Source of the DNA: Escherichia coli
GTDB taxonomy: Bacteria > Pseudomonadota > Gammaproteobacteria > Enterobacterales > Enterobacteriaceae
Reading direction: 5' to 3' (one strand)
NCBI RefSeq assembly: GCF_041886205.1
Contig: NZ_CP169029.1
DNA: 64,000 nt
The position numbers were made by a program, and so were the translations under genes. This document shows positions 10,601-18,037 of the stretch, one piece after another. The first letter of the stretch is position 1. Every line of letters begins with the position of its first letter. The notes under the pieces are model-generated. The model had not been told where the DNA came from and did no database searches. It was given only the letters and a program-made list of their open reading frames with translations.

Positions 10601-11413
10601 ATGATCATTACACGAGCAGACCTGCGAGAATGGCGTATCGGAGCGGTGATGTATCGCTGGTTCCTGCGCCATTTCCCACGCGGCGGTAGTTATGCCGATA
10701 TTCATCATGCACTGATTGAGGAAGGATATACGGACTGGGCGGAGAGTCTGGTTGAGTATGCGTGGAAAAAATGGCTGGCGGATGAAAACTTCGCGCATCA
10801 GGAAGTTTCCTCTATGCAAAAACTGGCCACAGACCCCGGAGAGATACCATTTTGCAGTCAGTTTGCCCGCAGCGACGATCATGCTCGCATCGGCTGTTGT
10901 GAGGATAACGCCCGAATCGCAACCGCTGGGTATGCCGCGCAAATTGCCAGTATGGGTTATAGCGTGCGGATTGGAAGTGTCGGCTTTAACAGTCACATTG
11001 GCAGCTCCGGTGAACGCGCACGGGTTGCTGTAACCGGTAATTCTTCGCGGATAAGCAGCGCTGGAGATAGTAGTCGGATTGCGAACACCGGAATGCGAGT
11101 ACGCGTTTGTACATTGGGTGAACGGTGTCATGTCGCCAGTAATGGTGACCTGGCGCAAATCGCCAGCTTTGGCGCAAACGCCAGAATTGCCAACAGCGGC
11201 GACAATGTACACATCATTGCCAGCGGTGAAAATTCAACGGTTGTGAGCACGGGCGTGGTCGACTCAATTATTCTCGGGCCAGGGGGAAGCGCCGCACTGG
11301 CATATCATGACGGCGAAAGAGTTCGCTTCGCCGTCGCCATTGAAGGTGAAAACAATATTCGAGCCGGAGTCCGCTATCGTCTTAATGAACAGCATCAGTT
11401 TGTTGAGTGCTGA
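10601..11413 (+). CDS. ydhT: Uncharacterised protein YdhT, last gene of the ydhYVWXUT cluster
   Basis: 270-aa ORF; central portion is a run of about 14 nine-residue repeats (see repeat feature). Confidence 0.8.
   Translation: MIITRADLREWRIGAVMYRWFLRHFPRGGSYADIHHALIEEGYTDWAESLVEYAWKKWLADENFAHQEVSSMQKLATDPGEIPFCSQFARSDDHARIGCCEDNARIATAGYAAQIASMGYSVRIGSVGFNSHIGSSGERARVAVTGNSSRISSAGDSSRIANTGMRVRVCTLGERCHVASNGDLAQIASFGANARIANSGDNVHIIASGENSTVVSTGVVDSIILGPGGSAALAYHDGERVRFAVAIEGENNIRAGVRYRLNEQHQFVEC
10877..11281 (+). repeat. In-frame 27-bp (9-residue) tandem periodicity within ydhT
   Basis: Translation gives successive 9-mers DHARIGCCE/DNARIATAG/YAAQIASMG/YSVRIGSVG/FNSHIGSSG/ERARVAVTG/NSSRISSAG/DSSRIANTG/MRVRVCTLG/ERCHVASNG/DLAQIASFG/ANARIANSG/DNVHIIASG/ENSTVVSTG with conserved [RHQ]-[IV] at positions 4-5 and Gly at position 9. 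Confidence 0.8.
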
Positions 11414-11424
11414 TAGCTTTACCT

Positions 11425-13029
11425 TTAATCAAACGAAAGACGCCGACGTGCACGGGATGCAGGTTTTACGACCGCCCGAGCCATCGCCTCACCAATTTCT
11501 GCACATGCCGTAAGTCCCTGAACGAAAGGCTGGTCGTGCATCAACCAGGGCAACGCGCCGAACGCTACGCGTCCACGAATATCTTCGGGTTGCTGTAACG
11601 TATAATCTTCGCCAACATCAGGGATTTCATCCCCTGTTTTCTGTAATTGCTCGCGTAGCCCAGGGAAAGGAATATCTTTCACTTTAAGCGGACGCTGTCC
11701 GCGGGCATCAATAAAAACGTCAAACGAGTAGCTGTTGTCTTCCGTTTTCAGGACGGTGCGCGACTCATTAATTTCCATTTCGTAGTCTTCACCGAGGGCG
11801 AGAATATGAATGATCCCCGCTTCACGTAAGGCCAGCAGCCGACGAATAGACTCTGAAGGGATTGCCGCATAATTATCGATAAAAACCCGGGTAAGGCCTT
11901 TACTGAACCGTTTATGGTCGTGTTCATTCAGATGTGGAACAATTTCCTGTACGGCTTCATGCAGGCGCAGAATGACATAACGCCAGGGAACAGTATGTTT
12001 TTCTCGTTTATTGCGTTCGACTTCCTGGAGATTTTTTTCTGCCCAGTCAAATGGGTCGCGTTGTTTGCGCTCGGCAAACCAGGCTTGAGCAAAGGAATCG
12101 ACATTCAGGCTCTCTAAGGCTATGCGTTGGCTCCAGTCTGGATCAGCAAACTTGATTTCCTCTACTATCAATCTAAATACCCGATCCAAAAGGCCCTCTT
12201 CGCCTTTTTGAATCTCAGCATTTAATGCCTGATCGGTGACAATGTGTAAGGACTCGTAGGGAATAGGGCAATAGAAATCGGCTTCGGGTAAAATACCCGT
12301 GCGCGACATCAACGTGATATTTAGCTTTTCACTTGCGTTATCGCGGTGAAAAACGACGTGTTGTTTATCATCTTCAATGAACGAACCATGCTGAATAGCC
12401 ACTGCCATTGCCGCATCCAGTCCGCTCAAGGATGTTCCCATAATACCCACGTTACACGCATCGACCTTTGCTTCCATCAGGCCTGACCACGGGCTGGGAA
12501 AATACGTTCGGGTTGCTTCTTCTTCATCAGGCCAGACGTGACCCGTGGCAATCACCGCTAAATCAAACGTCTCGCTGGGTAAACCCTGATTTGTAGCGAG
12601 CATGACGCCAGCATTTGTAATTTGCAGATCGGTAACCTGGCATGATTCATAAACAGCCACTGCAAATTTTTGCTTTCGTGCCTGGTCTACTAATCGTAAA
12701 AATTGATCGCGGAAATATTCGCCCAGCAGAATTCGCGGTAAAAACTGACGATCGTGCAAGGTTTCTTTTTTAACGCCATAACGCTGGAGATGGCTGGCTT
12801 CTTGCTTTTGTAGCCATTCGAGATACGTACAATTAATCGGCGGTATTTCAATACTGGCAATATTTGCCAGCATCATTTTTGAGTTTTCCTCATCACTGTA
12901 TGGCATCCCGACACCGGCCTCGTCAGCCTGCTCGAAGATAGAAATAGAAAGTGGAGTTTGTTGCTGTAGAAGCGAGAATAAGGTGTAGATCCCCGTAGGC
13001 CCGGCACCCACAATAGCAATTTTTTTCAT
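11425..13029 (-). CDS. ydhS: FAD/NAD(P)-binding protein YdhS
   Basis: 534-aa ORF with N-terminal dinucleotide-binding motif MKKIAIVGAGPTGIYTLFSLL; convergent with ydhT with an 11-bp gap. Confidence 0.85.
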   Translation of the reverse strand: MKKIAIVGAGPTGIYTLFSLLQQQTPLSISIFEQADEAGVGMPYSDEENSKMMLANIASIEIPPINCTYLEWLQKQEASHLQRYGVKKETLHDRQFLPRILLGEYFRDQFLRLVDQARKQKFAVAVYESCQVTDLQITNAGVMLATNQGLPSETFDLAVIATGHVWPDEEEATRTYFPSPWSGLMEAKVDACNVGIMGTSLSGLDAAMAVAIQHGSFIEDDKQHVVFHRDNASEKLNITLMSRTGILPEADFYCPIPYESLHIVTDQALNAEIQKGEEGLLDRVFRLIVEEIKFADPDWSQRIALESLNVDSFAQAWFAERKQRDPFDWAEKNLQEVERNKREKHTVPWRYVILRLHEAVQEIVPHLNEHDHKRFSKGLTRVFIDNYAAIPSESIRRLLALREAGIIHILALGEDYEMEINESRTVLKTEDNSYSFDVFIDARGQRPLKVKDIPFPGLREQLQKTGDEIPDVGEDYTLQQPEDIRGRVAFGALPWLMHDQPFVQGLTACAEIGEAMARAVVKPASRARRRLSFD

Positions 13030-13154
13030 TGTTACTTACCTGTACGCATTCTTTCGAATTTAGTGTTATCAGATAAGTTTGGTTGAGATTTTTAGAATTT
13101 GAGAAATTTCAGACAGGGATGAAAAGGGCGCTAACCGCCCTTGATTAAATTCTG

Positions 13155-13373
13155 TCAGGCGAGTTTTGCCTGATTGATTTGACTCAGTGGCTCATTGACA
13201 TCGAAAACTTTGGCGACAACTTCCTCAACGCCGAGATTTTTAAGTCGGGCAGTATGTTTTTCCAGATAGGCAAGGGCGCTTTTTTCATCAGTAAAAAGAT
13301 AGATCCCACCGGCTTCGTGGTTCTTTTCACTTTCTGTCCATACCTTCCACAGAAAACCAGGTTCCTGATTAAT
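13155..13373 (-). pseudogene. ydhR: ydhR, 3' fragment (codons about 31-101) separated from its 5' end by the IS insertion
   Basis: Reverse-complement translation reads ..[71 protein letters not shown]-stop; the frame is broken at 13373/13374 by the IS terminal repeat. Confidence 0.85.
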
Positions 13374-13415
13374 TGAACCGCCCCGGGTTTCCTGGAGAGT
13401 GTTTTATCTGTGAAC

Positions 13416-14306
13416 TCAGGCTGCCAGATCATCGTTTCCGATGGAAGCATAATAAGCTTTTTCTGCTTCTGCCGGAGGAGTATGGCCCAGCCTTTCCAGC
13501 AATCGTCGATTGTTATACCAGTCCACCCACGTGAGTGTGGCCAGTTCCACTTCTGCACGGTTTTTCCAGCTCTTACGGTGTATTACCTCCGCTTTGTAAA
13601 GACCATTGATGCTCTCCGCCATCGCGTTGTCATACGAGTCGCCTGTACTTCCTGTTGATGCCAGTAATCCGGCTTCCTTAAGCCGCTGTGTGTAGGCCAG
13701 CGATACATACTGAGAACCTTTATCACTGTGATGGACCGTGCCGGACGGTCGACGGGCCCATAACGCCTGCTCCAGTGCATCCAGCACGAATGTCGTTTCC
13801 ATGGACGATGAGACCCGCCACCCCACGATGTATCCGGCAAACACATCAATGATGAACGCCACATAGACGAAGCCCCGCCATGTGCTGACGTAAGTAAAAT
13901 CAGCCACCCACAGCTGGTCAGGTCGTTCTGCCACGAACTGACGGTTTACGCGGTCGCCTGCGGCAACGGCTTTCCGGCTGATGGTCGTACGGACCTTTTT
14001 ACCCCGGAGAACACCGGCAAGTCCCATAACCGCCATGAGACGTGCCACAGTGCATCTGGCCACTCTGATACCTTCCCGTAACAACTGACGCCAGACTTTA
14101 CGCACACCGTATACCTTGTGATTTTCATCGTATACGCGCTGTATCTCTTTCTTCAGCCAGTCATCGCGCTGCGCACGGGCACTGCGTTTATCCGGATGAT
14201 GTCGCTGTTGCTGACAGTGGTAATACGTTGACGGGGCAATATGCAGTTCGCTGCATAGCGGTCCGACCCCGTACTGCTCACGCAGCTTATCCAGCAGTGG
14301 CATCAT
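13416..14306 (-). CDS. IS3-family transposase OrfB (DDE catalytic domain)
   Basis: 296-aa [33 protein letters not shown].. with an integrase/DDE-type core; overlaps orfA in the -1 frame. Confidence 0.9.
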
Positions 14307-14629
14307 TTTTTCCAGAGGCGGTCGAACTCCGCCTTCGCAAAATAAGCGGAAGCCTGGCGAAGGATATCGTTACTGCGGCGCAGTTCACGATTTTCACGTT
14401 CCAGCTCTTTCAGACGCTGACGTTCAGCGGTGGTGAGCCCTCCATCACCGCCCCCGGTATCCCGCTCATGCTGGCGAACCCAGACACGCAGAGTCTCCGG
14501 CGTACAGCCAATCTTTGGAGCAATGGAACAAATTGTCGCCCATTGTGAGTCATATTCGCTCTGACTTTCCAGAACCATACGGACTGCCCGTTGACGGACT
14601 TCGGGGGAAAAACGAGTATTTTTAGTCAT
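14303..14629 (-). CDS. IS3-family transposase OrfA (helix-turn-helix and leucine-zipper part)
   Basis: 108-aa [64 protein letters not shown]..., ending ..RLWKK at an A6 slippery run immediately before the orfB start. Confidence 0.9.
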
Positions 14630-14683
14630 CCTGTTTACCTCTTTCTCAGGAAGTTTAGTCTCCAGGATTCCCGGGGCGGTTCA

Positions 14684-14773
14684 AATCGACTCAGCAAGCG
14701 GTTTAAGCTGCTCAGCCATTGCGTCGCCAAATGGGCCATTAAAAGCAAAATGAAGTTGTAACAAAGTTGCCAT
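14684..14773 (-). pseudogene. ydhR: ydhR, 5' fragment (first 30 codons) upstream of the IS insertion
   Basis: Reverse complement encodes [30 protein letters not shown], then runs into the IS end. Confidence 0.85.
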
Positions 14774-14880: not shown

Positions 14881-14957
14881 TGGTGCGTCCGAGTGGACTC
14901 GAACCACCGACCCCCACCATGTCAAGGTGGTGCTCTAACCAACTGAGCTACGGACGC
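14881..14957 (-). tRNA. tRNA-Val, first of a tandem pair (valV/valW locus; which copy is which not resolved)
   Basis: 77-nt reverse-complement sequence GCGTCCGTAGCTCAGTTGGTTAGAGCACCACCTTGACATGGTGGGGGTCGGTGGTTCGAGTCCACTCGGACGCACCA with encoded CCA end; anticodon read as GAC. Confidence 0.9.
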
Positions 14958-14961
14958 AGGA

Positions 14962-15038
14962 TGGTGCGTTCAATTGGACTCGAACCAACGACCCCCACCA
15001 TGTCAAGGTGGTGCTCTAACCAACTGAGCTATGAACGC
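14962..15038 (-). tRNA. tRNA-Val, second of the tandem pair
   Basis: 77-nt reverse-complement sequence GCGTTCATAGCTCAGTTGGTTAGAGCACCACCTTGACATGGTGGGGGTCGTTGGTTCGAGTCCAATTGAACGCACCA; differs from its neighbour only in the acceptor and T stems. Confidence 0.9.
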
Positions 15039-15345
15039 AACGTTGTAGGTGACAACGGGGACGAATATTAGCGGCAGAGTGGGAAGGTGGCAAGAGGCAA
15101 AACGTAATTTTCTGCGCTATTTCGACCGTTTGCAGAGCTTTTAAGCAAATTGGCTATATTTTGTTGATTTGCAAGGGCGATTTTTATTCAGGATCGCATT
15201 TACATCTGATACAACCCAATAATTCGTGTATCAGAGTTTAAACAGAGTTGTTTGCCACCATCTCAAATCTGTCGTGGATAAATCCTCCGTAGCCTTTACA
15301 CTTAGGTAGCAATAAAGGCACACAGATGCAGCAAAGGAATAAATC

Positions 15346-16602
15346 ATGGGATCTGATGCGAAAAACTTGATGAGCGACGGGAATGTGCAAATTGTTAAGA
15401 CCGGCGAGGTCATTGGCGCGACGCAACTTACTGAAGGCGAGTTGATTGTTGAAGCTGGCGGAAGAGCCGAAAATACCGTGGTCACGGGGGCTGGCTGGTT
15501 GAAAGTGGCAACCGGTGGGATCGCCAAATGTACACAGTACGGTAACAATGGCACGCTATCGGTCAGCGACGGTGCCATTGCCACAGATATTGTTCAGTCC
15601 GAGGGAGGCGCAATTAGTCTCTCTACGCTCGCTACGGTTAATGGCCGCCATCCCGAAGGTGAATTCAGCGTTGATCAGGGTTATGCCTGCGGTTTGTTGC
15701 TGGAAAATGGCGGTAACCTGCGTGTACTGGAAGGACATCGCGCGGAAAAAATCATTCTCGATCAAGAGGGCGGCCTGTTGGTTAATGGGACAACCTCAGC
15801 GGTCGTGGTAGATGAAGGTGGTGAATTGTTGGTGTATCCAAGTGGGGAAGCCAGCAATTGTGAGATTAATCAGGGCGGCGTTTTTATGCTGGCCGGGAAA
15901 GCCAGTGATACGTTGCTTGCTGGTGGCACCATGAATAATCTCGGTGGTGAAGACTCTGACACTATTGTTGAGAATGGATCCATTTATCGTCTGGGGACGG
16001 ATGGCCTTCAGCTCTACAGTTCCGGTAAGACGCAAAACCTGTCCGTGAATGTGGGTGGTCGGGCTGAAGTGCATGCCGGTACGCTGGAAAATGCGGTAAT
16101 ACAAGGTGGGACAGTGATCCTGTTGTCACCCACCAGCGCGGACGAAAATTTTGTCGTAGAGGAAGATCGCGCACCGGTTGAACTGACCGGGAGTGTTGCA
16201 TTACTGGACGGCGCTTCAATGATTATTGGCTATGGCGCAGATCTGCAACAATCAACGATTACTGTACAGCAGGGCGGTGTATTGATTCTCGACGGCAGTA
16301 CGGTAAAAGGTGACAGTGTCACTTTAAATGTTGGTAACATCAATCTAAATGGCGGAAAACTGTGGCTAATCACTGGTGCGGCAACGCATGTGCAACTGAA
16401 AGTGAAACGCCTGCGCGGAGAGGGAGCGATTTGCCTGCAAACCAGTGCGAAAGAAATTTCACCTGACTTCATCAATGTGAAAGGGGAAGTTACCGGTGAT
16501 ATACACGTTGAGATAACAGATGCCAGTCGGCAAACTCTGTGTAACGCACTGAAACTACAGCCAGACGAAGACGGGATTGGCGCAACGCTCCAGCCTGCGT
16601 AA
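15346..16602 (+). CDS. ydhQ: AIDA-like repeat protein YdhQ (autotransporter-passenger-like, no translocator domain)
   Basis: 418-aa ORF rich in Gly/Thr/Val imperfect repeats typical of a beta-helical adhesin passenger; no obvious signal peptide or C-terminal beta-barrel. Confidence 0.8.
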   Translation: MGSDAKNLMSDGNVQIVKTGEVIGATQLTEGELIVEAGGRAENTVVTGAGWLKVATGGIAKCTQYGNNGTLSVSDGAIATDIVQSEGGAISLSTLATVNGRHPEGEFSVDQGYACGLLLENGGNLRVLEGHRAEKIILDQEGGLLVNGTTSAVVVDEGGELLVYPSGEASNCEINQGGVFMLAGKASDTLLAGGTMNNLGGEDSDTIVENGSIYRLGTDGLQLYSSGKTQNLSVNVGGRAEVHAGTLENAVIQGGTVILLSPTSADENFVVEEDRAPVELTGSVALLDGASMIIGYGADLQQSTITVQQGGVLILDGSTVKGDSVTLNVGNINLNGGKLWLITGAATHVQLKVKRLRGEGAICLQTSAKEISPDFINVKGEVTGDIHVEITDASRQTLCNALKLQPDEDGIGATLQPA

Positions 16603-16640
16603 AAACACAGGCGCAACCCGTGAAGGTTGCGCCTTGTCTT
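16601..16640. terminator. Bidirectional intrinsic terminator between convergent ydhQ and mdtK
   Basis: 10-bp stem aggcgcaacc/ggttgcgcct with 6-nt loop, A5 upstream and a T-rich tail downstream. Confidence 0.7.
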
Positions 16641-16642
16641 TA

Positions 16643-18037
<1,395 letters not shown>

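Follow-up and report, generated by a model that had tools for sequence, protein, structure and literature searches.

YdhQ, an apparent autotransporter passenger fragment kept under purifying selection across Escherichia

The ydhQ locus

We analyzed ydhQ, an open reading frame (ORF) of 418 codons plus stop (15346..16602 on the plus strand, first residues MGSDAKNLMSDGN) that lies between a pair of tRNA-Val genes and mdtK in a stretch of 64,000 nucleotides from Escherichia coli (assembly GCF_041886205.1, contig NZ_CP169029.1), called the window below. The gene, long known (b1664 of strain K-12), encodes a product with a computed mass of 42.8 kDa, an isoelectric point (pI) of 4.4 and a net charge of -27, rich in glycine (15.1%), leucine (10.8%), valine (9.1%), alanine (8.1%) and threonine (7.9%). 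Its identity was given by NCBIfam NF007409 (PRK09945, the YdhQ equivalog), which it matched over positions 1-418 of 418 with a score of 939.1 bits (cut-off 830). The surrounding 2.4 kb were found, at 95-100% identity, in 5424 of 5426 complete E. coli genomes; the RefSeq annotation of this region reads ydhR, two tRNA-Val genes, ydhQ (“AIDA repeat-containing protein”) and mdtK. The ydhQ mRNA is a predicted CsrA target (PMC5389547).

An original prediction, made from the sequence alone, had described the product as an AIDA-like beta-helical passenger with no evident signal peptide or translocator barrel, being either a piece of an autotransporter, orphaned or decayed, or a beta-helix protein that stays in the cytoplasm and has another role, next to a tRNA pair typical of sites for acquired DNA. 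We followed up each part of this description using profile searches, alignments to full-length relatives, orthologue comparisons, a structure model and the published record; the coordinates of all features are collected in Table 1.

Passenger repeats and absent export modules

The passenger-like repeat character of YdhQ was recovered far above chance: the Pfam AIDA profile matched in three stretches (E=5.6e-28), NCBIfam auto_Ag43 (1.6e-26) aligned residues 25-213 with positions 249-443 of its 948, and the strand-loop-strand repeat TIGR04415 scored 39.2 bits with a cut-off of 30. Among PDB structures, the sequence matches were solely Ag43, AIDA-family and TibA passengers (4e-25 to 1e-12), and the best structural match was a TibC-glycosylated TibA fragment. 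The AlphaFold2 (AF2) model was all-beta, with a predicted local distance difference test (pLDDT) of 83.8 and a predicted template modelling score (pTM) of 0.76. No YdhQ match was obtained with the PADLOC defence-system models, and its PHROG matches were merely prophage-borne Ag43-like proteins.

None of the parts that export such a passenger was found with it. The maximum Kyte-Doolittle hydropathy (11-residue) in the first 60 residues was 1.25, whereas the signal peptides of three full-length relatives reach 2.3-2.4, the first arginine comes only after residue 39, and neither a Tat motif nor a lipobox is present; the published SignalP 6.0 call for YdhQ is likewise “no signal peptide” (PMC13101318). 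The PF03797 barrel gave no match to YdhQ even at E<=1, and the Pertactin/autochaperone profile was covered only over positions 1-78 of 121. We also considered an alternative start or frame that would supply a signal peptide, which was ruled out by stops in all three upstream frames within the 307 nt between tRNA-Val and ydhQ. Because a TAA stands in frame 3 nt 5' of the ATG, the tRNA-Val gene is 307 nt away and the mdtK stop codon, on the opposite strand, starts 41 nt past that of ydhQ (the two genes share the hairpin between them), there is no room for a signal peptide or a barrel on either side. Five barrel domains and two N-termini taken from relatives, used as tblastn queries, gave chance matches only (E of at least 0.45) in the whole window, and tblastn and blastx searches for remnants of export parts, flanks included, returned chance matches (E of at least 0.45) together with trivial self-matches to metagenomic ydhQ fragments. 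Both absences noted in the original prediction were thus borne out. Of four sequence features of the Ag43/AIDA class, YdhQ has the beta-helical passenger of AIDA-type repeats and lacks the other three (signal peptide, complete autochaperone, barrel), and it is therefore not to be classed as a type Va autotransporter.

The points of truncation were located by alignment to complete relatives. Residues 2-60 match repeats that lie far inside long autotransporters, which places the start of the ORF within a repeat array. At the other end, four complete relatives align to the C-terminal 120 residues and have 382-404 residues still to follow, and in the relatives P0129, P0158, P0157, P0138 and P0081 the Pertactin profile runs up to position 120 of 121 and is followed by PF03797. 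In the colinear alignment YdhQ keeps in step with the full autotransporters until “...LKLQPDEDGIG” (theirs “...LQIIQTGGG”) and then stops; the autochaperone end of the relatives (“GGxVDxGTYEYxL...WxL”), their linker and their barrel are all absent from it. The comparison with full-length homologues that the original prediction had called for thus found a C-terminal barrel in the relatives and none in YdhQ, which, on these alignments, is an internal fragment of an autotransporter passenger by origin.

YdhQ is homologous to the type Va passengers of Ag43 (Flu), AIDA-I and TibA, but differs from these proteins in having no signal peptide or ESPR, no N-terminal passenger part, no linker and no PF03797, in retaining 78 of 121 autochaperone positions, and in scoring 93 and 56 bits where the equivalog cut-offs are 1200. 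The AIDA-type proteins P0081/P0096, P0104/P0142, P0129, P0158 and P0157 are colinear with YdhQ residues ~170-400 at 27-32% identity and share with it the Pertactin start “L.G.G.f...T...D.l.V.G”, but they run ~380-400 residues further, through the autochaperone end, linker and barrel, and they lack the motif ADENFVVEE. We take P0081/P0096 and P0104/P0142 to be YcgV/YcgH/YpjA-like. This motif (residues 264-272) is a 9-residue insertion missing from five aligned autotransporter relatives; it sits in a block (residues 261-280) that is near-invariant in all YdhQ orthologues, and it is predicted to be disordered (pLDDT<50). As an acidic loop particular to YdhQ, it may be the best candidate for a YdhQ-specific functional site.

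Conservation and selective constraint

The gene was present as a single copy in 5424 of the 5426 complete E. coli genomes, again at 95-100% identity. Beyond the species, orthologues were found in E. ruysiae, E. marmotae, E. albertii, Escherichia sp. E4742, E. whittamii and Escherichia sp. E1V33. YdhQ is 418 residues long in the orthologues (419 in one deep lineage, described below), its first and last residues are unchanged, and the indels across 7 orthologues amount to one codon only. The ratio of nonsynonymous to synonymous substitution rates (dN/dS, or omega; Nei-Gojobori method) was 0.068-0.136 in all 15 pairs and similarly low when each half of the gene was taken separately. In the closest pair, which is unsaturated (dS 0.43), omega was 0.115 (95% confidence interval 0.079-0.161), and the upper confidence limits for the whole gene were <=0.18 at dS 0.43-1.1. 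The control gene mdtK gave 0.011-0.023. YdhQ therefore changes several times faster than a membrane transporter, yet purifying selection on it is clear. Immediately upstream of the start codon, ~75 nt that include the Shine-Dalgarno (SD) sequence AAGGA are conserved in six lineages, and this block would presumably hold the promoter and 5' untranslated region of ydhQ.

We looked for the marks of a pseudogene, namely relaxed constraint, variable length and patchy presence, and found none of them: ydhQ is not decaying and is not a pseudogene. E. coli K-12 carries disrupted autotransporter pseudogenes (ydbA, ycgH, yaiT, yejO), AIDA-like remnants that are interrupted and in which some export parts are left. 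Unlike these, ydhQ has a clean ORF and a start of its own, its length is fixed, its distribution is genus-wide and its omega is ~0.1. Of the two descriptions originally offered for the gene, a fragment origin and a maintained protein both hold, while the word “decayed” has to be dropped in view of its dN/dS, length and presence.

A deep lineage and distant relatives

A deeper Escherichia-like lineage, known from metagenomes, carries a 419-residue YdhQ that is 72% identical to that of E. coli and occupies the same site. It occurs in assemblies from runs SRR26188682/87/88, SRR31578456 and SRR31920192, with ydhQ-mdtK on loci L003, L087 and L088. Its MdtK is 95.4% identical to that of E. coli, and its mdtK dN to E. 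coli is 0.026, above that of E. albertii (0.012) and below those of Citrobacter and Salmonella (0.045-0.048). Since the same gene is found at the same site in a lineage that falls between E. albertii and Citrobacter/Salmonella, the truncated ydhQ predates the named Escherichia species, and the length of YdhQ has been fixed across about half the E. coli-Salmonella divergence, as measured by mdtK dN.

Outside Escherichia, an exhaustive search of representatives returned no further cluster of YdhQ orthologues above 50% identity. The closest full-length relative (P0026/P0175, 1534-1538 residues, 38% identity, E=1e-74) comes from metagenome assemblies and carries 11 AIDA repeats, an ESPR and an autochaperone. 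Some of these assemblies belong to the run series that also yielded the deep ydhQ lineage. The locus of this relative differs from the ydhQ site, the neighbors being a second autotransporter and a NEL-domain (IpaH-like) protein. We considered P0026/P0175 as the parent of ydhQ and rejected it as too distant; with this protein, at only 38% identity, being the nearest full-length one, no parent gene was found. Other candidates were set aside for different reasons: P0078 (54%), a possible distant orthologue, is a frameshift-ridden read assembly; P0096, P0104, P0107 and P0142, which are shorter and have a signal peptide at their start, are fragments of ordinary autotransporters, as is P0057; and P0172, which has no evident signal peptide, may likewise be a fragment.

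The insertion site between mdtK and tRNA-Val

We compared the mdtK locus in 80 Enterobacteriaceae species and measured the gap from the mdtK stop to the first tRNA-Val gene. This gap was 139-210 bp in 45 loci (Salmonella arizonae, several Citrobacter, Enterobacter, Lelliottia, Leclercia, Kosakonia, Atlantibacter, Buttiauxella and others), 373-411 bp in 2, and ~1600 bp in 4, all Escherichia, where it holds ydhQ. A further 15 loci carried other inserts of 0.7-4.8 kb without YdhQ similarity, on the 5' side of the tRNA genes, and in 14 no tRNA lay within the DNA compared. The ORF content of the other inserts was read from translations in three of the 15 loci: Pseudescherichia vulneris (L077) has a TetR-like regulator and a short-chain dehydrogenase, Klebsiella pneumoniae (L074) has a LOG-like protein and a Lys/Ala-rich repeat ORF, and L052 has an acyltransferase and an integrase-like fragment. 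The spacer between mdtK and tRNA-Val is an insertion hot spot across Enterobacteriaceae.

Sequence shared with other genera extends from the tRNA genes as far as ~15113-15137 and from the opposite flank as far as the mdtK stop codon, which delimits an Escherichia-specific segment at ~15138-16640. The segment lies on the 5' (promoter) side of valVW and not at a tRNA 3' attachment site; its 1.5 kb hold no integrase, no flanking or att-like repeats were found at it, and its G+C content is 51.3%, compared to 50.7% for the window. It is not a classical tRNA-borne island, and its acquisition is ancient and genus-wide. The expectation that the tRNA-Val pair marks acquired DNA was accordingly right as to an insertion at a variable spot, but wrong in so far as it implied an island.

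No syntenic full-length autotransporter that could be an in-situ parent was found among the 80 species loci. In Kosakonia oryzendophytica (L078, ~11205-14186, minus strand), a large AIDA-like autotransporter gene whose product is 28-30% identical to YdhQ lies beyond the tRNA-Val pair, on its 3' side, and is probably an independent acquisition. The hairpin at 16609-16634 (AGGCGCAACC...GGTTGCGCCT) is unlike the mdtK terminator hairpin (TAGCCGCC...GGCGGCTA) kept in Citrobacter, Salmonella, Enterobacter and Leclercia, from which it follows that the insertion also replaced the mdtK terminator.

Table 1. Features of the ydhQ locus, in window coordinates.
Feature	Coordinates	Strand	Basis or remarks
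ydhQ coding sequence	15346..16602	+	ORF list, NF007409 match
AIDA / strand-loop-strand repeat part of the beta-helix, residues 1-213	15346..15984	+	Profile matches, alignment to long autotransporters
C-proximal passenger “stalk”, residues 214-328	15985..16329	+	Colinear with YcgV/YpjA-like and other AIDA-type autotransporters found
Acidic loop ADENFVVEE, residues 264-272	16135..16161	+	Alignment, orthologue conservation, AF2 model
Partial Pertactin/autochaperone domain, residues 329-403	16330..16554	+	Profile positions 1-78 of 121
Shine-Dalgarno AAGGA, 7 nt 5' of the ATG	15334..15338	+	Same in six lineages; followed by the in-frame TAA at 15340-15342
Conserved upstream block, including TACACT (15297-15302) and two GGA motifs around SD and start	15270..15345	+	Six-lineage comparison
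Escherichia-specific segment, ~1.5 kb	15138..16640	.	Comparison with other Enterobacteriaceae
G+C-rich hairpin between convergent ydhQ and mdtK	16609..16634	.	Terminator-like score on both strands
valV-valW tRNA-Val(GAC) pair, 5' end towards ydhQ; conserved promoter region to ~15113-15137	14881..15038	-	
mdtK (MATE efflux pump), convergent with ydhQ	16643..18016	-	dN/dS control and synteny anchor

Two observations concern the surroundings of the gene. A published FlhDC peak from genomic systematic evolution of ligands by exponential enrichment (SELEX), assigned to the “ydhQ/valV” spacer, maps to ~15090-15131; since this is the valV promoter region conserved in genera without ydhQ, the peak need not reflect regulation of ydhQ. 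On the far side of the tRNA genes, an IS3-family insertion sequence of ~1.31 kb (13374-14683), which we take to be IS629-like, interrupts ydhR. Its minus-strand ORFs at 14303-14629 and 13416-14306 correspond to an orfA of 108 residues and an overlapping orfB of 296 residues. Aligned to the E. ruysiae locus, which is intact, the window loses homology at 13376 and regains it at 14684, within the ydhR frame, and no intact ydhR is present among the listed ORFs of the window.

Discussion

From the observed architecture, fold, missing export modules, insertion and selective constraint, we consider it likely that YdhQ is an exapted cytoplasmic beta-helix working as a binding or scaffold rod. It would derive from the C-proximal ~420 passenger residues of an autotransporter of the AIDA-I/Ag43/TibA type (type Va, self-associating), the fragment starting inside the repeat array and ending two-thirds into the autochaperone domain, which leaves YdhQ without a Sec signal, a complete autochaperone, a linker and a beta-barrel, and so with no means of self-transport. 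The gene, which has its own conserved ribosome-binding site and upstream block, would have come in with the ~1.5-kb segment that separates mdtK from the valVW promoter, at a time before the split of the known Escherichia species and the deeper sister lineage. YdhQ has since been held at fixed length under purifying selection; as a stand-alone soluble protein, it would offer a rod-like surface for binding or scaffolding.

The cytoplasmic location is suggested by the missing signal peptide and by published fusions. YdhQ fusions without an added signal peptide are cytosolic, with a fluorescing reporter, and addition of a signal peptide to the YdhQ “anchor” fusion gave higher reporter activity, which was reported as display; these data come from a 2026 surface-display toolkit that uses YdhQ as a full “leaderless autotransporter” anchor (PMC13101318). 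The text of that paper does not mention the missing barrel of YdhQ, and the terms “proteinase K”, “trypsin” and “protease accessibility” do not occur in it. Leakage of a periplasmic fusion would be an alternative account of the reported display. The native protein has been quantified by whole-cell label-free proteomics, with a 5.5-fold drop under vanillin stress, as part of a change that also involved Fnr-regulated proteins (PMC6561319), it was among 17 unannotated proteins recovered as RNA-binding candidates by UV-crosslinking and orthogonal organic phase separation (OOPS; bioRxiv 10.1101/2023.07.03.547468), and it copurified with EF-Tu (PMC2672614).

Several points weigh against a cytoplasmic, functional rod. 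The placement in the cytoplasm derives from the fusions and the sequence and not from native, untagged YdhQ, and no function or phenotype is established for the protein. On the side of the methods, dS is saturated in the more distant ydhQ pairs, Nei-Gojobori is a crude estimator, and the input alignment of the AF2 model consisted of only 7 close sequences. Deletion of ydhQ is used as a routine neutral control or as an integration site (PMC6962156; bioRxiv 10.1101/2023.03.28.534373), ydhQ is stated to be needed for early adhesion in a passage that is itself a secondary citation (PMC9110714, citing Roux 2005), and YDHQ is listed among the COG3468 proteins of extracellular-vesicle proteomes (PMC10458587). 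The adhesion and vesicle reports would fit an envelope role, and the literature on location thus conflicts, with cytosolic fusions where no signal is added on the one hand and a second-hand claim of early adhesion on the other.

That envelope role can be put as a rival in which YdhQ leaves the cell by a non-classical route, or with a barrel, Bam or Tam acting in trans, and aids early adhesion. The adhesion claim, in the secondary form just given, the vesicle listing under COG3468, the gain in reporter activity when a signal peptide is fused to the “anchor” and the nature of the homologues, which are self-associating adhesins, all speak for it. We nevertheless regard it as rather unlikely: a signal peptide, a Tat motif and a lipobox are all missing from YdhQ, as is a barrel, its autochaperone is truncated, its fusions remain cytosolic unless a signal is added, and the display paper is silent on the missing barrel and uses no protease-accessibility terms. 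Cytoplasmic proteins are, moreover, common in vesicle preparations. A relic, that is, a dead autotransporter fragment whose frame is open by chance and whose expression is noise, would explain the loss of every export module, the lack of phenotype of the deletion in laboratory use and the want of a parent gene or partner nearby, but a dN/dS of ~0.1, a length of 418-419 residues, a conserved start and SD and presence in 5424 of 5426 genomes stand against it, as does detection of the protein by proteomics. This reading is largely refuted by the dN/dS, and we hold it to be very improbable.

Two further rivals keep YdhQ in the cytoplasm and give it a more specific task. In one, the adhesin fragment was recruited to an RNA- or translation-linked task as a binding platform or a mimic of nucleic acid, its acidic rod (-27) and invariant loop binding nucleic-acid-binding proteins or ribonucleoproteins. 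Recovery by OOPS, copurification with EF-Tu and the pI of 4.4 point this way, but OOPS and EF-Tu are high-throughput leads, and weak ones, EF-Tu often turns up as a contaminant, the profile and structure comparisons of YdhQ showed no RNA-binding fold, and autotransporter passengers are generally acidic, so that the acidity of YdhQ is probably inherited. Such a role thus seems quite improbable; if it were true, YdhQ would be the first autotransporter passenger exapted as a cytoplasmic factor and fixed at the origin of the genus Escherichia. In the other, YdhQ would serve as a cytoplasmic substrate or decoy for autotransporter heptosyltransferases of the Aah/TibC type, which modify such repeats in the cytoplasm. 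The score of TIGR04415 (“O_hepto_targRPT”) above its cut-off and the glycosylated TibA fragment as best structural match agree with this idea, which we find extremely doubtful, as ydhQ is core in E. coli, no heptosyltransferase gene lies near it and, to our knowledge, glycosyltransferases of this type are confined to some pathotypes. We retain the binding or scaffold rod as the likely explanation.

The ydhQ gene itself, the lack of a signal peptide and the domain content were already known from the literature and public annotation; the precise truncation points, the purifying selection and the fact that a segment was inserted between mdtK and valVW at the base of Escherichia appear not to be on record in the searchable literature. 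The display claimed through a barrel-less YdhQ is hard to reconcile with the missing barrel and deserves scrutiny. The gene is widely treated as a dispensable neutral locus, a practice against which genus-wide purifying selection cautions. Selection on ydhQ must act on something, which points to an intracellular, probably niche-dependent role, and the gene offers a clean example of a secreted-protein fragment that would have been turned into a conserved cytoplasmic gene.

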